Of a DNA stretch of 64,000 nt, positions 38,997-46,420 are shown one piece after another. The notes beneath the pieces were generated by a model. The model ran no database searches and was not told the origin of the DNA. It saw only the letters and a program-made list of their open reading frames with translations. How positions within the stretch are numbered: position 1 is the first letter of the stretch; each line of letters starts with the position of its first letter. The stretch is from a phage, in NCBI GenBank assembly GCA_024614665.1, contig GCA_024614665.1_4861.1; one strand, 5' to 3'. Position numbers and translations under genes: made by a program.

Positions 38997-39043
38997 CAGA
39001 TAGCGCTATGGGGCAAGGAAGCCCCAATCAAAGGAGTTTGGCA

Positions 39044-40246
39044 ATGGCCGAAATCATTTATCAGTACCCGCTCGACCTTACCGGGACATTAACGTCGAAC
39101 GCCGTTACGCGGCGTATTACGTTAGGTTCTGGTAAAGTTAACCGGGCTTTTGCATTTCCTGACGGAGCTTTCTACGCGGATACTTTCCGCTTAGCGGCTG
39201 CGAACAAACCGGGTGTCTACCCGTACAAACGTGGTACAGACTACGAGCTGATTTTTGCACATACTGCATATCAGAAAATGACCAAGAACCGCGAAGTGGT
39301 CATGGGTGTGGTGGTAACTAACTCGGCCATTCCTACAGATATCGAAGTCTCTGCGCAAGTCGTTGGTGGTTTTCAGTCTGCGAACGTCGAAGGCATCCGA
39401 CAAGCGATTGCGTCGTTGAAAATTGAAGACCGCGTGGTGGACTTCAAGGATCTTCGGAACGTACCCGATACGTTCCCGTCCGCACCGACGTATAAAGACC
39501 TTGGCGATATCTACGGTTTTGAGTACATCATTACCGTGCTCGCGGGGATTAAAGATGCGATTAACTCCGGCTCTGCAGTACAGCTGGAAGAAATTAAAGG
39601 TATTCTGGACGGTCTGAAAAACGACTTCCTCGATGCCTTAAATACCCACATCAACGCCGAAGGTAACGTACACAATCTCGACATTCATCAGGTTAATGGC
39701 CTGACGGAGACGGAGATTCGTGCTCTGATTCAAAGTGTACAGACTGCCATTGACGCCACTATCAGAGATATCGGCGACTTAAGAGCAGCAGACACGGCGT
39801 TGGGGCAACGCATCGATGCAGTTGTGGCTTCGTTAGCCGCGTGGAACGACCAGCTTAATGTAGTTGCTCAAAATTACCAGAAAATGTCGTTAGCATTAGC
39901 TAACCTTAATTCTCTGGTGTTGCAATTACAGAAGAAGGTTAATGATCTTCAGTCTGCGCTGAATGAAACAAATCAGCGTGTCACGGATCTTGAGAATCAA
40001 GGCAAAGACTTCCAACAGCAAATTGATAACCTGCAAGGACAAATCAACAGTCTTAAAACTCAGGTTGTAAACAACACCAACGCAATTTCGCAGGCAAACC
40101 AGAATCTGGCGAACCATGCGGCTGCGGATAACCCACACCCGAATTACCTCCATAAACAGTATGGCGGTGTTGTGCAGGCTGCTGTTCACGTCAACAACAA
40201 CCTCACCTCGCGCGACGATGTTCAAGCTGAAGCGGGTACTAAGTAA
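39044..40246 (+). CDS. tail fibre-like protein with C-terminal coiled coil (about 400 aa)
   Basis: ORF track 39008..40246; ATG (MAEIIYQ...) with AAGGAG RBS; shared N-terminal module (GTDYELIFAHTAY); heptad-like Q/N/L-rich segment. Confidence 0.7.
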   Translation: MAEIIYQYPLDLTGTLTSNAVTRRITLGSGKVNRAFAFPDGAFYADTFRLAAANKPGVYPYKRGTDYELIFAHTAYQKMTKNREVVMGVVVTNSAIPTDIEVSAQVVGGFQSANVEGIRQAIASLKIEDRVVDFKDLRNVPDTFPSAPTYKDLGDIYGFEYIITVLAGIKDAINSGSAVQLEEIKGILDGLKNDFLDALNTHINAEGNVHNLDIHQVNGLTETEIRALIQSVQTAIDATIRDIGDLRAADTALGQRIDAVVASLAAWNDQLNVVAQNYQKMSLALANLNSLVLQLQKKVNDLQSALNETNQRVTDLENQGKDFQQQIDNLQGQINSLKTQVVNNTNAISQANQNLANHAAADNPHPNYLHKQYGGVVQAAVHVNNNLTSRDDVQAEAGTK

Positions 40247-40253
40247 CTTGTTT

Positions 40254-40300
40254 ACGAGCCGGACTATGTTTATGGACATAGTCCGCTCGTTCTACTTTTT
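40254..40300 (+). terminator. intrinsic terminator between tail fibre module and Cys-rich peptide genes
   Basis: long imperfect hairpin ACGAGCCGGACTATG...CATAGTCCGCTCGT followed by TCTACTTTTT. Confidence 0.6.
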
Positions 40301-40311
40301 AAGGAAGCGTA

Positions 40312-40704
40312 ATGGCGATATCTATTAAAGACGTCAGAAACCGCGTCCAGATAGTCGAAGCTAACATGGCGACAGGCCCCCGTATCGACGCGCAAGTGGC
40401 CTCTAAAGCCCATAACGCGGCAGACCGATTTGGGGGTTGGACGAAAACACAGCTAGATTGCGGCGGGACATGTTCTTGGACGTGCTCTAACGGTTGCTCG
40501 CATGGCTGTTCGAGCTGTTCAGGAAGCTGTTCTGCTTCTTGTATCGGTAGCTGTTCTTCGACGTGTGGCGGTAACTGTTCTGGTTGCTCTGGTTGTTCTG
40601 GTGGTTGCAGTAGTAGCTGTACCGGTAACTGCACAGGTGGTTGCGGTGGCTCTTGTTCCGCAAACTGCTCCGGGGCCTGCTCCGGCGGCTGTTCAGGTCG
40701 CTAA
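40312..40704 (+). CDS. Cys-rich repeat peptide 1 (130 aa), candidate radical-SAM substrate
   Basis: AAGGAAG RBS; about 50-aa leader-like N-terminus then core with Cys every 4th residue (CSNGCSHGCSSCSGSCSASC...). Confidence 0.7.
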   Translation: MAISIKDVRNRVQIVEANMATGPRIDAQVASKAHNAADRFGGWTKTQLDCGGTCSWTCSNGCSHGCSSCSGSCSASCIGSCSSTCGGNCSGCSGCSGGCSSSCTGNCTGGCGGSCSANCSGACSGGCSGR

Positions 40705-41110
40705 GGGGGATTAAATGGCAATTGGATTAAAAGAACTGAATAACCGATTAAACACGATCGATGCAAACGCTCTAAAGAATACCACGAATGTGCAAAACTA
40801 CATTCGCAATAAAGCTACGAATAACGCCGACTTGTTCGCAGGTCAAGGCCGTTCGCACTATGACTGTGGTGGCACATGCTCTTTTAGTTGCTCGAGTTGT
40901 TCTGGCGGATGTACTGGGTCTGCGACAGGTGGTTGTGGGTCGACTTGTTCGGCAAACTGTGTATCAGGCTGTAGCAGCAGCTGCACGGGCTGTAGCTCTT
41001 CGTGCTCTGGTGGTTGTAGCGGCACGTGCACAGGCAGCTGTTCTGGGGGTTGTGGTAAATCCTGCTCCGCAAACTGCTCAGGTGCGTGCTCTGGTGGTTG
41101 TTCAGGTCCT
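40480..41110 (+). repeat. periodic Cys-codon region encoding the cores of Cys-rich peptides 1 and 2
   Basis: 12-nt (4-codon) periodicity of TGT/TGC; Ser and Gly codons vary synonymously between repeats, so periodicity is at protein level. Confidence 0.6.
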
Positions 41111-41119
41111 AACTCCTAA
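40715..41119 (+). CDS. Cys-rich repeat peptide 2 (134 aa), paralog of peptide 1
   Basis: AAGGGGGA RBS; conserved leader and DCGGTCS core entry; same C-terminal CSANCSGACSGGCSG ending as peptide 1. Confidence 0.7.
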   Translation: MAIGLKELNNRLNTIDANALKNTTNVQNYIRNKATNNADLFAGQGRSHYDCGGTCSFSCSSCSGGCTGSATGGCGSTCSANCVSGCSSSCTGCSSSCSGGCSGTCTGSCSGGCGKSCSANCSGACSGGCSGPNS

Positions 41120-41134
41120 CTGACGGAGGCTTAT

Positions 41135-41341
41135 GTGATCAGTCTCAAGACTATTCGAAACCGTCTCGTTACGGCAGAAGGCTACATTACAACCGCGCAG
41201 GCAAACAACTATATCGCTAACCAGGGCACCGTGTCAACCACGAACAACCTGGCTGGTTTACCGCTTTCTCACTATAACTGTAATGGTGGGTGTAGCTGGT
41301 CCTGCAGCGGAAGCTGTAGCCGTGGAGCGGGGAATCGATAA
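41135..41341 (+). CDS. Cys-rich repeat peptide 3 (68 aa, short paralog)
   Basis: GTG start with GACGGAGG RBS; leader related to peptides 1 and 2; short core NCNGGCSWSCSGSCS. Confidence 0.55.
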   Translation: MISLKTIRNRLVTAEGYITTAQANNYIANQGTVSTTNNLAGLPLSHYNCNGGCSWSCSGSCSRGAGNR

Positions 41342-41363: not shown

Positions 41364-42251
41364 ATGAAAAACGATTTGCATCTTGCGTATAAAACCACAT
41401 TCAACCACCCGCTGCATCTATCTTCCCCAGATTCGGTGCGTGCACACCTCGCTGACAAAGTCAGACTGATTGCACAGATTCCTGGTGAGTGGCCAAAGGT
41501 TCGTGGTCGCTTCTTGACCGACAAGAAGAACTACACCGTAGAAAATACGTTTAAGATCCGTGATATGGTTGCAGAGGCCATCGTTATCTTTAACGGCGAT
41601 GGTAACTCTCGCGGCGTGTTGGTTGACGGTAAGTATTTCTTCAGTGAAGGGATTCTGAACAACAGTGTCGATTTAGAACTGATGTTTACACCGTTTGACG
41701 AACTCGAAGCAAAACCGATGGCGCGCCGTTGGTGGAGTCCGGACTATCTGGGCTCGTTCCCTTACTACTTTGTACTGGTACCTGCCGATACGGAAACGTA
41801 TTTCGACACCGAACCGTACATCGATATCGAGGGATATAAAGAACTCGGCATCACCCGTTTAGCGGACATGATGGCGTATAGCTATAAGTTCGTGTGGGAT
41901 AAAAAGCGTTCTGTCTGGTATGCGCTGACTGACGATTTTGAAATCACCAAACGTATTCGTAAGCCGTGGATGCAACACCTGGTTCAAACCCGATATGGGG
42001 ATTACCCGGCGACAGAAGCGGATTTGAGTAAGCTGGTAAGCTTCCTCTTAACGAAGGTGGATTTAACGAAAGAAGAAGCAGAAGCTGTTTCTGAGATTCG
42101 TAGTCGTTCGGTTACGTTGGCCGATTTGAAACGCTTGAACGAAAGACATGCCGACCTGAACAAAATTTTAGCTGCCTATCACGACCCGATGTTACTGGTG
42201 CCTGGCGCTAATGTAGACGAAGATCCTTTATTCGCCATTGATTATATTTAA
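41364..42251 (+). CDS. hypothetical protein (295 aa) within the radical-SAM cluster
   Basis: ORF track; co-directional, tightly packed between precursors and radical-SAM genes. Confidence 0.6.
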   Translation: MKNDLHLAYKTTFNHPLHLSSPDSVRAHLADKVRLIAQIPGEWPKVRGRFLTDKKNYTVENTFKIRDMVAEAIVIFNGDGNSRGVLVDGKYFFSEGILNNSVDLELMFTPFDELEAKPMARRWWSPDYLGSFPYYFVLVPADTETYFDTEPYIDIEGYKELGITRLADMMAYSYKFVWDKKRSVWYALTDDFEITKRIRKPWMQHLVQTRYGDYPATEADLSKLVSFLLTKVDLTKEEAEAVSEIRSRSVTLADLKRLNERHADLNKILAAYHDPMLLVPGANVDEDPLFAIDYI

Positions 42252-42273
42252 AAATATACTGGAGCAACCTGCA

Positions 42274-43188
42274 ATGACAGATCAAGTAGAATCCAGGATC
42301 TCGTCTGAACTGTACGACAAACCGTCAATTCTGTCGGTTGTCGCAACTTCTAAGTGTAACTTAGACTGTAGCTTCTGTGGAGGGGCTTATTACATGGATA
42401 GAGAAGATACTTCTCGTGAGTTTCAACGTGAAGAGATTCTCTCGATTTTAGAGAAGAATCCGGATATCGGTGAAATTCATTGGACGGGCGGTGAGCCGCT
42501 GTTAGCGCAGCGCAAGATTGAAGACTTCGTGAACGAGTTGAAGGAGTCTCATCCGAACCTCCGTCATCACATGTACACCAACGGTTTAAAGATGCGTAAA
42601 TCACATCTGCCGTTGCTGAAACAGTTCGACCTTATCTTTGTGTCCATTGACGGCTACAAGAAGTCGGAACGTCCGTTTATGAACTTTGTAAACGGTGGTA
42701 ATCACGAAGCGCTGGAAGTGCTGTACGAGCTGGACAACTATTACACCTGGGGTGTGATGACGCGTGACCAGTTAGGTGATAAACGCTGGTACGAAGATTT
42801 CATCGAGCTGCACCGAGCAATCTATCATTACCGTCCAGGTGGTATGTCGTTGCTGTTTGATGCGATGATGCCGAAACCGTTATCGCCAGACCACGTCATG
42901 AACTTCATGTACGGGTATTGGAAAATACTCGACAATATCGAACGCCTTAACATGCAGAACGATTCTGAGTGTGGGCTTGCGATCAGTAAAATGTTCGATA
43001 CTGAGTGCAACACGTGCAGTGAAGTGCTGTGGCTTAACGCCGACGGTACGCAGGAGCAAATTCAGAACGCCCCAGAGATATTGGAAGTCGGCTGTAATCG
43101 CCTGGCGCGTTCTATCGGCGTTGATGCGTATAACTACATCAACCGTGTAATTTCTGCTAAGCGTAAACGGGCGGCGAACAATGAGTAA
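42274..43188 (+). CDS. radical SAM enzyme (about 304 aa)
   Basis: CNLDCSFC (CxxxCxxC) near N-terminus; GGEPLL; C-terminal Cys cluster (ECGLA...ECNTCSE...GCN); ATG with CTGGAG RBS (ORF track starts 42238). Confidence 0.75.
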   Translation: MTDQVESRISSELYDKPSILSVVATSKCNLDCSFCGGAYYMDREDTSREFQREEILSILEKNPDIGEIHWTGGEPLLAQRKIEDFVNELKESHPNLRHHMYTNGLKMRKSHLPLLKQFDLIFVSIDGYKKSERPFMNFVNGGNHEALEVLYELDNYYTWGVMTRDQLGDKRWYEDFIELHRAIYHYRPGGMSLLFDAMMPKPLSPDHVMNFMYGYWKILDNIERLNMQNDSECGLAISKMFDTECNTCSEVLWLNADGTQEQIQNAPEILEVGCNRLARSIGVDAYNYINRVISAKRKRAANNE

Positions 43189-44509
43189 CAGCGAACAGCA
43201 AATCCAGTACACACCACGCACGTATCAGGTTGTGACTAACCTGTCATGTAATCTGGACTGCGAATACTGCTACGAGCGTAAATATCCTCGTAACAACAAA
43301 GTAGCAGACGTGATTGATTTTATCCACGCTTGTTTCGAGCGTGATAAAGATATCCCGAACGTTGAGGTCATCATCGATATCATCGGTGGTGAGCCGTTCA
43401 TGCAGCCTAAACTTCTTTTGGCGGCCTTTGAAACCGCAGAGAAGTTATGCGCAGAACACAATCGCCCGTATATGTTCAGTATCTCCACGAACGGTACACT
43501 TCTGGACCGTCCGCTGAACAAAGAAATTATCGAGCGCTGGAAAGACAAACTGTCTATTGGGGTCTCCATCGATGGTTTACCTGAAGTCCATGACAAATAT
43601 CGTATCTTTACCACGACGCGTGAAGGGTCGTACGAAGCTGCGGTACGCGGTTACAATTATCTGAAGAGTGTTGGCATCGCTGAATTAGGCGTAAAGGCGA
43701 CGTTTACGATCGATACATTGCCGCACTATGCCGCCAGCATGAAATCGTTAATTGACATGTCCGGCGGTGGTACCATTTCTGGTAACGTAACGTACGAAGA
43801 TATCCTGCCGCGCCATATGGCGTTGGATATCGCGAACCAGATGATGGACGTGATGGACTACTGGATTGAGAAGGGTCTGCACACCAACCCGCGTAACACG
43901 ATTACACACATCATCCCGGATGGCCTGAACTTTATGGCAACTTGGGACCCGGATTGGCGTGACAAACTCTTACATGACGACTCTGTTCGTCTCGACCCAG
44001 AACGCCTGAAACCGTACTGCGGTACGTTGACGCACATGACCTGTCTCGGCTTTGATCGCAAGATTTACGGTTGTAACCGTTTCATGTCCACGGTAACTTC
44101 CCGTTCTGCTGTAGCAGAACTGGTCGGTCGTGAGTTTGTGAGCCTGGACGGTGGTAAGTTGTTAGAAGAGATTCAAACACAGTACACCAACTACCCAGAA
44201 ACCTGTTTAGGGTGTCCGATGAAACACAGTTGCGGTAGCTGCGCAGCAGCATCGTACGAAAACGGTGAAGGTACACTGGAAGACCGTAAAGCGTATCACG
44301 CCGAGCGTCGTCAGTGTGGTTGGACTACTGCGAAGCTGATGGCGGCGGAATATTGGTATCAGAAAACTGGTACGACCCGCGCATCAGATTTGCATGATAA
44401 ATCCATGTGCTATTGTTCACGTTGTGTACGCCAACGTGCTGAAGCAGAAAAATTACAAAACGGAGCCCAGAATGAAGTCAATACTGATTCACAATTTTAC
44501 GAAGCGTAA
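43181..44509 (+). CDS. radical SAM enzyme with SPASM-like C-terminal domain (442 aa)
   Basis: CNLDCEYC (CxxxCxxC); IGGEPF; C-terminal CLGCPMKHSCGSC resembling the SPASM auxiliary-cluster motif; start overlaps stop of preceding radical-SAM gene by 8 nt. Confidence 0.8.
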   Translation: MSNSEQQIQYTPRTYQVVTNLSCNLDCEYCYERKYPRNNKVADVIDFIHACFERDKDIPNVEVIIDIIGGEPFMQPKLLLAAFETAEKLCAEHNRPYMFSISTNGTLLDRPLNKEIIERWKDKLSIGVSIDGLPEVHDKYRIFTTTREGSYEAAVRGYNYLKSVGIAELGVKATFTIDTLPHYAASMKSLIDMSGGGTISGNVTYEDILPRHMALDIANQMMDVMDYWIEKGLHTNPRNTITHIIPDGLNFMATWDPDWRDKLLHDDSVRLDPERLKPYCGTLTHMTCLGFDRKIYGCNRFMSTVTSRSAVAELVGREFVSLDGGKLLEEIQTQYTNYPETCLGCPMKHSCGSCAAASYENGEGTLEDRKAYHAERRQCGWTTAKLMAAEYWYQKTGTTRASDLHDKSMCYCSRCVRQRAEAEKLQNGAQNEVNTDSQFYEA

Positions 44510-45038
44510 ACTGCACTTGGTCGATCGCTTCCTGCGCAAAAGCAAGCTGTACAATGTGCACGCAATTGTGGCAGGGGAAGACTTCACTGATGAAATCCAA
44601 AGCCTGTTGATTAAATACGGGCTGAATGTGATGATCCCGGTCTACTGCGTTGAGAAAGGACACGAGTCTGTCGCGGAAATCGAAAAGCGCAACCCCGGCT
44701 TTGAGAAGCGACTGCTTGCATACCCACGCCACAAAATCGAACTGCTACGTCACTCTATTGATGAAGCCAGTCCTGAAAGTTTAGTGGCTTTGGGCTTGTC
44801 TTTCCCGCGGATGCGTATTCGTAACTTACGCTCCAATAACCCGGTTGACGCTTATTACACAGAGCGTCAAATCTTCGAAGAACACCTGCTCCCGCAGTTG
44901 GAAGAAGAAGAGCAACACAACATTTCTCTGTTGTGGGCCGGTAACCTCGATCAGGACTTCCAGATGCTGGACTTCGGTTTGTTGTTAGAACTTGGCCTGA
45001 TTGAGGAGGACGAATGTCTGTTACTGACAAAAGCTTAA
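44472..45038 (+). CDS. hypothetical protein (about 188 aa)
   Basis: ORF track 44394..45038; ATG (MKSILIH...) with ACGGAG RBS; overlaps 3' end of SPASM gene. Confidence 0.5.
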   Translation: MKSILIHNFTKRKLHLVDRFLRKSKLYNVHAIVAGEDFTDEIQSLLIKYGLNVMIPVYCVEKGHESVAEIEKRNPGFEKRLLAYPRHKIELLRHSIDEASPESLVALGLSFPRMRIRNLRSNNPVDAYYTERQIFEEHLLPQLEEEEQHNISLLWAGNLDQDFQMLDFGLLLELGLIEEDECLLLTKA

Positions 45039-45685
45039 CGAACGAAGAGATCCGCGCCCGTTATTTCCAGCGTGATTTGCCGATTGATCGTCACGGTAAT
45101 TTCATGGAACGAATCGGTGCGCAGGATCAGGGCCGTACAGGCTTTTGCGCTCTGCTCCATTATCATCTCATCGAAGGGATGTCTGATAAAGAAGCCCTGG
45201 CACGCATGAAGCTGTATGAGATGTCGGAGATTGAAGCTAACTTCACATTGAAACGCACGAAAGAGTTTATTGCTAATGTGCTGGAGATTGACCTCGACGA
45301 AATTCGCGGGAATCTGAAATCTACCGCACGTTACATTTACGAAGACGTGCAGAAGATGCTGTTGGAGCTTGACCACCGCTACGAAGATGAGCGTCATGGT
45401 TATATCGAGTTTGAAGGTAGTCACTTTCAAGCCGATGAATCGTCGCGTACCATCCTCGGTCAATACATTCAGGCAGATACCGCACCAGAATACTGGCTCG
45501 ATACGCTGAATACTAAGCACAGTCCGTTTACAGTAGCCCAATGTAAAGCGTTGCTGGCCGCTATTGTTGCACGTGACCAAGTGTTGCACTCAGCAATGGC
45601 AGATAACAAACGCCATATCCGTGAGTTAGCTGAAAAGCGCGATTACACTGGATTAAAAACATTGTCCGAATCTCTCGGCATTTAA
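45014..45685 (+). CDS. hypothetical protein (223 aa)
   Basis: GAGGAGG RBS; followed by bidirectional terminator. Confidence 0.6.
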   Translation: MSVTDKSLTNEEIRARYFQRDLPIDRHGNFMERIGAQDQGRTGFCALLHYHLIEGMSDKEALARMKLYEMSEIEANFTLKRTKEFIANVLEIDLDEIRGNLKSTARYIYEDVQKMLLELDHRYEDERHGYIEFEGSHFQADESSRTILGQYIQADTAPEYWLDTLNTKHSPFTVAQCKALLAAIVARDQVLHSAMADNKRHIRELAEKRDYTGLKTLSESLGI

Positions 45686-45687
45686 GC

Positions 45688-45745
45688 AAAGAAAATAAAG
45701 GCCCTACCTCCCTTCGGGGAGGTAGGTACCTTATTTTATTTCTTA
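45688..45745. terminator. bidirectional intrinsic terminator closing the radical-SAM cluster
   Basis: A-rich run, hairpin CCTACCTCCC-TTCG-GGGAGGTAGG, T-rich run; between convergent genes ending 45685 and 45766. Confidence 0.7.
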
Positions 45746-45765: not shown

Positions 45766-46293
45766 TTAAACGAATCCGTCCAGTTCACCGTTGGTGGTGC
45801 TCAGGTCAGTTTTAACGATTGGCTGCGTTACAGTATAAACTGCAGGGCTGCCAGGTCGGTATTTAATGTGGCCTGATTTCACCTTAACAGTGATGACTTT
45901 CTCACCACTGCTGCCGTCCACGCGTTTAATGATGAGTTCAGACAATGCAAACGCATCTTCCGTTTTACCGGCGGCAATTAGATCTGCGTTGACAAAAGCA
46001 AGCACTTCTTCATCGGTATCCCATTCTGCCTGGTCAGCGGTAACTGCCTTCTCACCGATGATGTCCGATAAATTGAGGCGGGTATAATGCAGCTCTTTCA
46101 CGCCAGTAAAGTTAGCGGATTCCGCGGTGGCGGTGATGGTGAGATTGGTGTTGCGAGTGTCTCCAGAATCTGCTGGTGAATAGTCAGCAACAGCGCCGAA
46201 TGTAACGTCAGCAGCAGTTAACGGACTAGGCAGTCCGCTGTTTGCAGCATTAAACAGCGCGACGAGTTGGTCTTTTGCAGAGATGACTGCCAT
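45766..46293 (-). CDS. short family-A paralog (175 aa)
   Basis: AAGGAAA RBS; LHYTRLNLSDI motif and C-terminal TNGELDGFV shared with long family-A proteins. Confidence 0.6.
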   Translation of the reverse strand: MAVISAKDQLVALFNAANSGLPSPLTAADVTFGAVADYSPADSGDTRNTNLTITATAESANFTGVKELHYTRLNLSDIIGEKAVTADQAEWDTDEEVLAFVNADLIAAGKTEDAFALSELIIKRVDGSSGEKVITVKVKSGHIKYRPGSPAVYTVTQPIVKTDLSTTNGELDGFV

Positions 46294-46420
46294 GGTTGTT
46301 TCCTTATAGTAGGTTTGTGGTGCATACTAAATCGTTCTAAAAAAAATACATAGTGGGCTTAATATGACAGTAAAGTTGACTGTTAAACGAGAAAATTATT
46401 TACCACTGAAAGGATACCTT

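Follow-up and report, generated by a model that had tools for sequence, protein, structure and literature searches.

The window analysed here, a stretch of 64,000 nucleotides, comes from an SPN3US-like jumbo Salmonella phage. Three of its ORFs, which the initial annotation had described as unknown proteins embedded in a radical-SAM cluster, correspond to SPN3US gp165, gp162 and gp161 (98-100% identity). The features of the locus are as follows.

39008..40246, + strand: gp167, a 412-aa coiled-coil tail virion protein; ORF identical to SPN3US gp167
40254..40290, + strand: stable hairpin followed by a U-run, 3' of gp167 and ahead of the first Cys-repeat gene; dG -23.7 kcal/mol, z -4.47
40312..40704, + strand: Cys-X3-repeat protein A, 130 aa, 21 Cys; phrog_6085, E 9e-40
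40715..41119, + strand: Cys-X3-repeat protein B, 134 aa, 20 Cys; phrog_6085, E 3e-41
41135..41341, + strand: short Cys-repeat protein C, 68 aa, GTG start, GGAGG RBS; phrog_6085, E 2.7e-24
41364..42251, + strand: gp165-like protein, 295 aa, ATG start, first of the three ORFs; obligatory core partner of the radical-SAM pair
42274..43188, + strand: radical-SAM enzyme 1, gp164, 304 aa; PF04055, E 1e-15
43181..44509, + strand: radical-SAM/SPASM maturase, gp163, 442 aa; TIGR04115 and PapB matches
44472..45038, + strand: gp162-like protein, 188 aa, second of the three ORFs; putative radical-SAM (beta/alpha) core remnant
45014..45343, + strand: N-terminal domain of gp161 (about residues 1-110), the third ORF, which runs to 45685 (223 aa); module-specific, with invariant motifs
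45374..45625, + strand: C-terminal DUF4376 domain of gp161 (residues 121-204); Pfam PF14301, E 8.6e-9
45703..45726, both strands: bidirectional intrinsic terminator with a 10-bp GC-rich stem and T-runs on both strands; dG -25.7 kcal/mol, z -4.45

The three ORFs were borne out at the positions and lengths initially given, all on the + strand, and the overlap of about 38 nt claimed between gp162 and the SPASM gene measures exactly 38 nt. The longest ORF for gp162 begins upstream, at 44394; we nevertheless take 44472 as the true start, because all 22 aligned gp162 homologues (22/22) open at that position with MK(S/P)xLI and a GGAG lies 8 nt 5' of it. The gp162 and gp161 genes overlap in turn by 25 nt, with GAGGAGG upstream of the ATG at 45014. 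Compared with its SPAsTU orthologue, gp165 has a dN/dS of 0.030 and gp162 one of 0.070, and gp161 gives a pN of 0.13 vs a pS of 0.82; length and order of all three ORFs are kept in homologues down to 30-40% identity. gp165, gp162 and gp161 are real genes, beyond chance ORFs. Their products are acidic and soluble, and no transmembrane segment was found in any of them.

The suggestion that these genes share a transcription unit fits the layout, since the genes between 40312 and 45685 all point in one direction, lie close together or overlap, and are bounded at either edge by a hairpin or terminator. The upstream hairpin is terminator- or attenuator-like (0 of 200 shuffles folded equally well in RNA folding) and delimits the module on its 5' side; the downstream terminator ends both the module and the convergent gp160 gene. 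Directly 5' of the block in all SPN3US-clade loci lies gp167, a protein detected in SPN3US virions and given no 'Head' label there (PMC5694885, Suppl. Table 1). The upstream neighbours gp167-gp170 are virion proteins and candidates for baseplate or tail fibre.

Looking at the two enzymes, the CX3CX2C motif begins at about residues 23-28 in both. The gp164 cluster motif, CNLDCSFC (residues 28-35), depends on the start at ATG 42274, which is preceded by GGAG; the SPN3US annotation begins 40 codons later, and the motif is lost. The most conserved gene of the block is gp163 (61-83% identity), whose best NCBIfam match is TIGR04115, 'CXXX-repeat target family' (E 3e-36, 125.6 bits vs a cut-off of 350), followed by PapB, NF047865 (E 1e-32, residues 22-357, 113.6 bits vs a cut-off of 340).

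In the SPN3US clade the three Cys-repeat proteins are free-standing small ORFs (130, 134 and 68 aa), all three unannotated. Protein A has an N-terminal region of about 49 aa ending in ...NAADRFGGWTKTQLD, followed by CGGTCSWTCS..., and scores 18.5 bits against TIGR04114 (cut-off 20); its orthologues occur in all clade loci, though they are unannotated in SPN3US and SPAsTU. The 'gp166' call of SPN3US (window 40788..41123) is another frame over the protein B gene. Protein C, whose C-terminal end reads ...CNGGCSWSCSGSCSRGAGNR, is the best conserved of the three (53-92% identity), and short equivalents were also seen in the more distant contexts L026 and L029. Phage substrates have in common a pre-repeat motif, N-A-x-x-L/F-x-G-x4-Y-D/N/R | C-G/N-G-x-C-S-W. 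In L033 and L036, proteins that match several PHROG tail-fibre families end in the Cys-repeat domain, as do larger upstream proteins in L145, L146 and L031; the module comes after a central fibre J or tail-fibre gene in L031, L035, L145 and L146, and in L026 and L029 it lies among nucleotide-metabolism genes, away from tail genes. The Cys-repeat domain is thus tied to phage tail fibres. The list of 86 SPN3US virion proteins lacks gp161 to gp166 (PMC5694885, Suppl. Table 1); for the Cys-repeat proteins this absence is uninformative, since the published mass spectrometry relied on an annotation that does not include them.

We then considered whether the three genes are co-conserved with the radical-SAM genes. 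Relatives of gp165, sought by an exhaustive HMM profile search, were present in only 49 clusters (representatives), and those of gp162 and gp161 were sought, non-exhaustively, through shared words or patterns. About 12 architectures were read (L026, L029, L031, L033, L035, L036, L025, L032, L143, L145, L146 and the SPN3US clade). Throughout the contexts examined, among them non-syntenic phages and two contigs from bacterial MAGs, radical-SAM genes lie next to the gp165 relatives, as the initial proposal of co-conservation had it, and no homologue of the three proteins was found outside a radical-SAM setting in the contexts read, the search for gp162 and gp161 being non-exhaustive. Wherever upstream sequence exists in these contexts, a Cys-repeat domain is encoded just 5' of the gp165-type module. 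Across 24 loci of the SPN3US clade the eight-gene block keeps its order, even where identity falls to 30-40%. Elsewhere the gene order is altered (L033, L143), the gp165-like gene is in duplicate (L145) or both radical-SAM genes are fused (L146). Three independent lineages have gp162 after the SPASM enzyme; in L026 and L029 its homologue is directly 3' of the SPASM gene (E about 1e-15), and start and stop codons of the two genes overlap in all lineages. As L026 and L029 sit among nucleotide-metabolism genes, the linkage goes beyond mere shared synteny. Conversely, gp165, gp162 and gp161 are all missing from 79 other SPASM loci, about 9 of which are bacterial-type CXXX-repeat loci. Homologues of gp162 and gp161 were undetected in the most distant modules, where several contigs end too early to tell, and a partial ORF 3' of the SPASM gene in L035 matched neither; only gp165 is therefore truly universal in the modules. 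Co-conservation is thus strongly borne out by these gene neighbourhoods, and the three proteins belong functionally with the radical-SAM genes.

The absence of any recognised motif, noted at the outset, holds for gp165 and gp162, which have no Pfam, NCBIfam or PADLOC match, and fails for gp161. For gp165, structural modelling confidently predicts a new fold. A canonical RRE fold was rejected, the fold being different. The protein has no Cys at all, and no conserved catalytic residue, nucleophile or metal ligand was found across its family. It is probably a non-catalytic subunit for substrate docking or presentation, and leader or substrate recognition is a plausible role for it. The modelled gp162 looks like a remnant of a radical-SAM (beta/alpha) core: its top structural neighbours and weak profile matches are radical-SAM cores, and it lacks the Fe-S cysteines, the whole beta1/CX3CX2C segment and the SPASM part. 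Its gene is predicted to be translationally coupled to that of the SPASM enzyme, and we propose that the protein is an auxiliary (pseudo-enzyme) subunit. By sequence, gp161 combines a module-specific N-domain bearing the invariant motifs PIDRHGN and CALLHY with a tail-fibre-chaperone domain, DUF4376 (36.3 bits vs a cut-off of 25). DUF4376 also forms the C-terminus of Alteromonas phage V22 gp27 and A5 gp9, both proven chaperones, and of the H-fibre chaperone of Campylobacter CJIE1. A weak match to phrog_2837 'tail protein' was also obtained, and no sequence match to TfaMu or to a solved structure was detectable. A separate protein of 93 aa, encoded at the same position in L029 and L030, matches residues 14-88 of gp161 (E 4e-5).

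Since the three genes always accompany the radical-SAM pair and a fibre-tip Cys-repeat domain, they are most likely helpers in the maturation of a host-recognition fibre. We consider it probable that gp165, gp162 and gp161 are soluble non-virion accessories that form, with gp164 and gp163, a portable maturation cassette for the Cys-X3-repeat domain; the binding partners, the chemistry and the presence of the product on the virion are those we infer. The substrate would be the phrog_6085 Cys-X3-repeat domain, a C-terminal tail-fibre tip in many phages. gp165 would bind the conserved pre-repeat segment and offer the Cys-rich tail to the enzymes, doing an RRE-type job by an unrelated new fold, and gp164 and gp163 would install radical-SAM cross-links, presumably Cys-derived thioethers by analogy with PapB-type enzymes. 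gp162, made in a fixed ratio with gp163, could be a non-catalytic partner or substrate holder, and gp161 a fibre-assembly chaperone whose N-domain grips the Cys-rich tip while DUF4376 drives oligomerisation. If true, this would be an undescribed chemical maturation of a phage host-recognition fibre; no description of the system was found in the searchable literature.

The locus could also be read as a classical RiPP cluster: several small precursors join a conserved N-terminal region of about 49 aa to a Cys-rich core that is hypervariable, SPASM-type enzymes come next, and the best matches of the SPASM enzyme are the peptide maturases TIGR04115 and PapB. The Cys-repeat proteins would then be leader-plus-core precursors of a diffusible peptide (antibacterial, signalling or anti-defence), with gp165 for leader recognition or as leader peptidase and gp162 and gp161 for export, immunity or tailoring. 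The location outside tail genes in L026 and L029 and the fact that Cys-repeat proteins have never been reported from virions agree with such a cluster. However, no module gene in any context carries a peptidase, transporter or immunity signature or a transmembrane segment, and gp165 has no conserved catalytic residue; the protease, export and immunity roles proposed initially are thus unsupported, as no peptidase, transporter or defence family matched and gp165 offers no catalytic-type residue. Moreover, the 'core' is fused to the C-termini of long tail-fibre proteins in L033, L036, L145 and L146, where leader removal or export would be senseless. Because this core is a tail-fibre domain elsewhere and gp161 carries a fibre-chaperone domain, our view of the locus changed: it is probably not a classical diffusible-peptide cluster, and we hold that explanation to be unlikely.

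It is equally doubtful that gp162 is an active enzyme adding a further modification, for instance by hydrolysis or transfer on a partial TIM barrel. Ser66 and Lys88, invariant across three lineages, could be catalytic, Asn8, Thr10, Lys25 and Glu61 are nearly so conserved, and the gene is coupled to the maturase; yet the protein resembles radical-SAM cores without their catalytic element, the Fe-S loop, it matches no family model, its KRNPGFE motif belongs to the SPN3US clade and is not retained in L026 and L029, and no homologue was detected in more distant modules. The regular spacing of 20-21 Cys within about 80 residues would also suit a metal- or Fe-S-binding, metallothionein-like domain that is not cross-linked, and the accessories might be metallochaperones or cluster-delivery factors, given that radical-SAM/SPASM enzymes require several Fe-S clusters and that gp162 resembles a radical-SAM core. 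This is very unlikely: gp165 is Cys-free, no cluster motif of Cys or His is retained in any of the three proteins, the one Cys of gp162 that is invariant within the clade is absent in L026 and L029, and dedicated SPASM maturases beside CXXX repeats are classed as peptide-modifying. Finally, the confinement of homologues among cultured phages to one clade with largely colinear genomes could mean that the three genes are unrelated neighbours held by general SPN3US-like synteny. This is effectively refuted by the gp165 relatives beside radical-SAM genes in about 11 non-syntenic contexts, some reordered, by gp162 and the gp161 N-domain accompanying the module into L026 and L029, by the overlapping start and stop codons, and by the genes just 3' of the block, which are rearranged within the clade while the block itself is intact.

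The maturation cassette that we favour shares features with several known systems. CXXX-repeat systems (TIGR04114 peptide, TIGR04115 maturase, PF27846), defined by bioinformatics, likewise have tandem Cys-X3 repeats beside a radical-SAM/SPASM maturase; the phage Cys proteins reach TIGR04114 at 17-18.5 bits, and PF27846 is weak on the L027 homologue. In contrast, gp163 stays far under the TIGR04115 cut-off, the module also has another radical-SAM enzyme as well as gp162, gp161 and the gp165 family, all of them absent from the bacterial-type loci sampled, and the phage substrates have a distinct pre-repeat motif and are fused to or beside tail fibres. Within CX3D/E motifs, PapB-type maturases join Cys by a thioether to another residue, at its beta or gamma carbon. 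PapB is the second-best match of gp163 and the substrate Cys again occupy every fourth position, whereas the phage partner residues are mostly Ser, Gly or Thr instead of Asp/Glu, and counterparts of gp165, gp162 and gp161 exist only on the phage side. The His-Xaa-Ser system (peptide HxsA, radical-SAM enzymes HxsB and HxsC, small protein HxsD) also combines two different radical-SAM enzymes, small accessories and a substrate with short-period repeats, and gp163 matches HxsB (E 5e-21) and gp164 HxsC (E 6e-12), both far under the cut-offs; the repeat chemistry differs, and the three phage proteins gave no HxsD-like match. gp162 recalls the pseudo-radical-SAM proteins (TIGR04347 'pseudo-SAM/SPASM protein') in its core without cluster cysteines beside true radical-SAM enzymes, but it is much shorter (188 aa) and does not match the TIGR04347 model.

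Like the DUF4376 fibre chaperones V22 gp27, A5 gp9 and CJIE1, gp161 joins a C-terminal DUF4376 to a lineage-specific N-domain, and it is non-virion and encoded 3' of fibre-type genes. These chaperones have been likened to TfaMu, and in the two-domain Tfa plan the N-domain varies and holds the fibre tip, and the C-domain is conserved and serves oligomerisation. Unlike in classical fibre/chaperone pairs, four maturation genes separate gp161 from the Cys-repeat (fibre-type) genes, and L029 has the N-domain with no DUF4376 attached. In other RiPP pathways the RRE binds the substrate and presents it to the enzymes; the job proposed for gp165 would resemble that of a PqqD-like RRE, keeping hold of the unmodified substrate region on behalf of a radical-SAM maturase that itself lacks an RRE.

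The three open reading frames that the initial annotation had picked out inside the radical-SAM (rSAM) cluster were found with exactly the coordinates and sizes it gave, and were matched to gp165, gp162 and gp161 of the jumbo Salmonella phage SPN3US. The 5.4-kb region is 98-99% identical to that of Seoulvirus Salmonella jumbo phages, among them SPN3US, SaP7 and SEGD1, and is organized as follows.

40254-40290, stable hairpin followed by a U-run, 3' of gp167 and 5' of the first Cys-repeat gene (z about -4.5)
40312-40704, + strand, Cys-repeat protein, 130 aa
40715-41119, + strand, Cys-repeat protein, 134 aa
41135-41341, + strand, Cys-repeat protein, 68 aa, GTG start
41364-42251, + strand, gp165, 295 aa
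42274-43188, + strand, gp164, first rSAM enzyme
43181-44509, + strand, gp163, rSAM/SPASM maturase
44472-45038, + strand, gp162, 188 aa
45014-45685, + strand, gp161, 223 aa
45703-45726, strong bidirectional terminator, 3' of gp161 (z about -4.5)

The overlap of gp162 with the SPASM gene (43181-44509), proposed at about 38 nt, is exactly 38 nt. A longer gp162 frame starting at 44394 was rejected as a real gene because all homologues begin at MK(S/P)xLI, which corresponds to position 44472, and because a GGAG ribosome-binding site lies 8 nt upstream of that position. The gp161 start lies 25 nt before the end of gp162 and has GAGGAGG in front of it. When compared with the orthologues of the related phage SPAsTU, gp165 and gp162 gave dN/dS values of 0.030 and 0.070, respectively, gp161 gave a pN of 0.13 and a pS of 0.82, and the rSAM genes gave similar values (0.05-0.08). 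These low ratios mean that gp165, gp162 and gp161 are real genes under purifying selection. An unsupported 184-aa antisense frame (45035-45589, - strand) lies wholly within gp161 and is probably a by-product of sense-strand composition. Several of the GenBank records LR5359xx (Salmonella phages SPFM1 to SPFM22) match the region only as about 40 short pieces, with predicted proteins that are scrambled versions of gp165, gp162 and gp161; this fragmentation looks like the result of indel-rich assemblies and not like biology.

The initial annotation had also placed the three frames in the same transcription unit as the rSAM genes. The sequence is consistent with this, since the hairpin at 40254-40290 and the terminator at 45703-45726 bracket the block. 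The hairpin stands between gp167, an abundant virion gene, and the first Cys-repeat gene, and may serve in transcript attenuation or processing. A scan for sigma-70 promoters was uninformative, with fewer sites than in shuffled sequences; the phage has its own RNA polymerases. Beyond the terminator, gp160 to gp157 (45766-48204), which comprise DUF7941 paralogues and a DUF1353 protein, vary in order and orientation across the clade (comparison with L003-L024), whereas the Cys-repeat/rSAM block is fixed. One of these genes, gp157 (47563-48204, - strand), is called a tail assembly chaperone in RefSeq but a head protein in the SPN3US mass-spectrometry table.

The Cys-repeat genes are missing from public records or mis-framed in them. 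The SPN3US gene annotated as gp166 (window 40788-41123) is a different frame laid over the second Cys-repeat gene, and in SPAsTU nothing is annotated between gp167 and gp165. The Cys-repeat frames were therefore absent from the search database, which put their products out of reach of the published SPN3US virion proteomics. The annotation of gp164 in SPN3US starts 40 codons late (window 42394), with the loss of the cluster-binding motif CNLDCSFC; the true start is the ATG at 42274, which has a GGAG upstream and agrees with all orthologues.

Each Cys-repeat protein starts with a conserved stretch of some 49 aa, after which every fourth position is a Cys, for instance CGGTCSWTCSNGCSHGCSSCSGSC. 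With 20-21 Cys and a period of 4, the 130-aa and 134-aa proteins are confirmed as tandem Cys-X3 repeats. All three proteins belong to phrog_6085; the TIGR04114 repeat model scored 18.5 and 17.1 bits on the Cys-repeat proteins, just below its cut-off of 20, and PF27846 is recorded, weakly, on the homologue from L027. An HMM of the N-terminal regions, built with a shared docking motif in mind, had no other match in the window.

We then looked at the conservation of the module. The order gp167, Cys-repeat genes, gp165, gp164, gp163, gp162, gp161 was the same in all 24 SPN3US-clade loci compared, which were taken from GenBank, IMG/VR and Logan assemblies and whose proteins are in some cases no more than 30-40% identical. 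Because such an order could by itself be synteny, the gp165 alignment was used for an exhaustive profile search of 1.84 billion proteins. No more than 49 cluster representatives came out, the distant members being of 230-390 aa with the C-terminal half in common. The genomic context was looked up for nine distant members, and bacterial genomes were scanned in addition: the SPN3US-clade gp165 profile had no relative in the species-representative prokaryotic genomes (genome_contigs), and a tighter alignment of the distant members found two contigs from metagenome-assembled genomes (MAGs).

Genomic contexts of distant gp165-like genes (L-numbers are the contigs compared)
L026 and L027, 76-kb phage contig with nucleotide-metabolism genes and GroEL: two long and one short Cys-repeat genes, gp165-like, rSAM, SPASM, gp162-like, 70-aa ORF
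L029 and L030, non-tail neighbourhood: order as in L026, the last gene being a 93-aa protein matching the gp161 N-domain only
L031, 3' of a J-like central fibre gene: Cys-repeat protein, gp165-like, rSAM
L033 and L034, short contig: Cys-repeat-tipped tail fibre, rSAM, gp165-like, SPASM
L035, small phage: tail fibre, small Cys-repeat ORF, gp165-like, two rSAM genes
L036, short contig: Cys-repeat-tipped tail fibre, gp165-like, rSAM
L025 and L032, short contigs: gp165-like, rSAM; L025 with an upstream Cys-repeat ORF
L143, short contig: rSAM, 158-aa ORF, gp165-like, rSAM
L145, Synergistaceae MAG: J, 122-aa ORF, Cys-tipped 475-aa protein, rSAM, two tandem gp165-like genes, SPASM
L146, bacterial MAG: tail fibre, Cys-tipped 257-aa protein, gp165-like, fused rSAM-SPASM of 672 aa

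In every context that was read, rSAM genes adjoin the gp165-like gene, and a Cys-repeat domain is found immediately upstream wherever the contig extends far enough in that direction. Homologues found consistently outside any rSAM setting would have pointed to unrelated functions; as all gp165 contexts read, whether from the clade, the distant members or the MAG contigs, contain rSAM genes, no such case was encountered for gp165. The evidence is narrower for gp162 and gp161, whose relatives, in non-exhaustive searches, come from the clade and from L026 and L029: pattern scans of IMG/VR with both alignments returned only the same jumbo-phage contigs, and tblastn of gp161 against GenBank phages gave only SPN3US-clade matches. 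As a converse check, 79 metagenomic loci were collected with a SPASM alignment; they carry other, mostly generic SPASM enzymes, and about nine of them encode bacterial-type CXXX-repeat peptides. None contained a homologue detectable with the gp165, gp162 or gp161 profiles. The initial annotation was right to place the three proteins in the rSAM system.

Some of these loci have features of their own. Both rSAM enzymes of L146 (7554-9572) are fused into one 672-aa protein, and in L145 (5782-7402) the gp165-like gene is present as a tandem duplicate (296 and 251 aa). Further genes of the 76-kb L026 contig (3684-4868 and 8633-8854 among them) code for a third, different rSAM protein of 394 aa, for a member of the Acb2/Tad1-hairpin family and for a GroEL-like chaperonin. 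Bacterial-type CXXX-repeat peptides were seen beside SPASM enzymes in the metagenomic loci L063, L067, L069, L070, L071, L081, L083 and L098, and their leader regions differ from those of the phage type; they make a useful set for comparison with the phage module.

The AlphaFold2 model of gp165, computed from 41 homologues, is confident (pLDDT 90.2, pTM 0.86). In it, residues ~57-187 form a beta-rich middle and residues 191-272 a helical C-terminal portion, and as modelled the protein is a new fold. By structure or profile comparison, it does not show the winged-helix fold with a three-stranded sheet that marks a canonical PqqD-like recognition element (RRE). The wide family keeps a helical motif of hydrophobic and charged positions, (R/K)-h-A-D-Y-x-(R/K)-L-I-x-F-L-L-x-K-V-x-L-T-x-E-E, and in its alignment no enzyme-like pattern of Ser, Cys, His or Asp is conserved. 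gp165 itself lacks both Cys and membrane segments, and does not appear in the SPN3US virion protein list. In gp164 and gp163 the CX3CX2C motif starts at about residues 23-28, so that neither enzyme has an N-terminal recognition domain. We infer that gp165 docks the substrate for the rSAM enzymes without being a catalyst itself.

gp162 has no Pfam match (PF04055 included), and its family contains no CX3CX2C or variant [4Fe-4S]-binding motif; the sole invariant Cys within the clade, C182 near the C-terminus, is lost in L026 and L029. A partial (beta/alpha)6 barrel core is nevertheless recognizable. Among the sub-threshold matches of the gp162 profile to 8,150 ORFs, 2% of which are radical-SAM, rSAM ORFs took 8 of the first 10 places and 16 of 24 (hypergeometric p 1e-12 to 4e-22). 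In the best match (E 0.0066), residues 31-98 of gp162 align with the section of the core that runs TNG...SxDG. With control profiles, rSAM ORFs filled 0/10 (gp165), 0/10 (wide gp165 family) and 2/10 (gp161) of the top positions. From this enrichment we conclude that gp162 is a remote remnant of the radical-SAM core without the beta1 and Fe-S loop segment. The signal is remote only, and a recent duplication of gp164 or gp163 was rejected, the hhalign probability being below 1% against both families. Since Ser66 and Lys88 are invariant, a catalytic role of gp162 may be considered. In all three lineages gp162 begins before the SPASM gene has ended, with an overlap of 37-41 nt in the clade and of 1 nt in L026 and L029, an arrangement that suggests co-translation with the SPASM enzyme at a fixed ratio.

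Residues 121-204 of gp161 match Pfam DUF4376 (PF14301) with 36.3 bits for a gathering cut-off of 25, and the domain is precomputed on 13 of the 14 aligned homologues. DUF4376 is described as the C-terminal domain of chaperones that fibre maturation requires in Alteromonas phages V22 (gp27) and A5 (gp9) and in Campylobacter CJIE1 prophages, and has been likened there to TfaMu, whose variable N-domain binds the fibre tip and whose conserved C-domain drives assembly (PMC7289586, PMC10579305, PMC7882524). The N-terminal part of gp161, about 110 residues with the invariant motifs PIDRHGN and CALLHY, is homologous to the 93-aa protein that stands alone at the corresponding place in L029 (E 4e-5). 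Given this homology and the DUF4376 match, gp161 looks like a fusion of a module-specific domain to a generic fibre-chaperone domain. It is the last gene of an operon opened by the fibre-type Cys-repeat genes, with four genes in between.

The phage Cys-repeat domain (phrog_6085) is more than a small peptide. It forms the end of an L033 ORF that is 533 aa or longer and matches PHROG tail fibres 12 times, of a 438-aa protein with many tail-fibre matches that is preceded by a 1147-aa fibre (L036), and of proteins of 475 (L145), 257 (L146) and 221 aa (L031) whose genes come directly after J or after a different tail-fibre gene; in L035 a 575-aa tail-fibre protein precedes a small Cys-repeat ORF. 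In all of these the repeats are preceded by a conserved segment, N-A-x-x-(L/F)-x-G-x4-(Y/F)-(D/N/R) followed by C-(G/N/S)-(G/N)-x-C-S-W. In lambdoid phages the place after the central tail fibre gene J is taken by the genes for the side fibre (stf) and its chaperone (tfa). In SPN3US the module is preceded by gp170, gp169, gp168 and gp167, of which the first three are baseplate or tail-fibre candidates, gp167 being found in the virion without the 'Head' label (PMC5694885). On the basis of these tail-gene neighbours, 7 of the 9 informative contexts count as tail-fibre contexts, the exceptions being L026 and L029. An arrangement of two long and one short Cys-repeat proteins is kept from the SPN3US clade (window 40312-41341) to two unrelated phage contigs (L026, 9034-9995; L029, 120-1116), the short protein having about 68-79 aa, a single short repeat block and the ending CSW..(S/A)G.R. 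The three chains would thus perhaps co-assemble, and might do so as a heterotrimer.

Leader recognition, protease or export, immunity and additional modification had been put forward as candidate roles. The roles of leader peptidase, exporter or immunity protein find no support, for the wide gp165 alignment has no conserved catalytic-type residue, and no transporter domain, membrane segment or match to a peptidase, transporter or defence family was found in the three proteins; the maximum 19-residue hydropathy does not exceed 1.35 in gp165, gp162 or gp161. PADLOC matched none of the three proteins, and the rSAM enzymes showed no more than generic similarity there, at the level of viperins; comparison of the three family profiles with solved structures gave nothing significant. 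A literature search on SPN3US, Erwinia jumbo phages and CXXX-repeat/RiPP topics, with thin coverage of subscription journals, returned no description of the module, and the supplement of the 2023 SPN3US mass-spectrometry paper makes no mention of its gene names. The system is probably better described as one of fibre-tip maturation than as one producing a diffusible peptide.

The picture with the best support is that of a portable cassette, with an invariant core made of the Cys-repeat domain, a gp165-like protein and two rSAM enzymes, a shell, found in three lineages or more, that consists of gp162 and the N-domain of gp161, and DUF4376 as an addition in the SPN3US clade. By analogy with PapB-type enzymes, the reaction would be thioether formation on the Cys-repeat domain. 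As a tentative proposal, to which we give somewhat less than even chances, several phage lineages (SPN3US-like jumbo myoviruses and siphovirus-like phages or prophages) would staple a Cys-X3-repeat domain at the fibre tip by RiPP-type rSAM chemistry, with gp165, gp162 and gp161 as a docking, maturase and chaperone machine, and the triad of two long and one short proteins could form a cross-linked heterotrimeric tip.

If this is true, it would be the first radical-SAM peptide maturation on a virion structural or receptor-binding protein. Tail-fibre assembly would include a post-translational step of a new type, and the finding would extend the role of rSAM peptide maturases beyond small diffusible natural products to the building of virus particles. 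The 'radical SAM' genes of SPN3US-like and Erwinia jumbo phages would be explained. The CXXX-repeat rSAM substrates, orphans for more than 10 years, would gain a tractable model in a culturable Salmonella phage with amber mutants, and the gp165 and gp162 families would be defined requirements for reconstituting the reaction. Three conserved genes that are missing or mis-framed in GenBank would be flagged, and a heavily cross-linked, Cys-rich fibre tip could be of interest for engineering stable receptor-binding proteins.

With regard to known systems, the best match of gp163 is the maturase of the CXXX-repeat system (TIGR04115, E 3e-36), but its 125.6 bits are far below the equivalog cut-off of 350; PapB is also among the best matches, again well below cut-off. 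The canonical bacterial-type CXXX-repeat loci (about nine sampled) differ in having no relatives of gp165, gp162 or gp161. Altogether, the system is akin to radical-SAM systems with Cys-repeat targets, and what is new in it is two accessory families, gp165 with its modelled new fold and gp162 as a pseudo-radical-SAM protein, together with an unexpected link to tail fibres.
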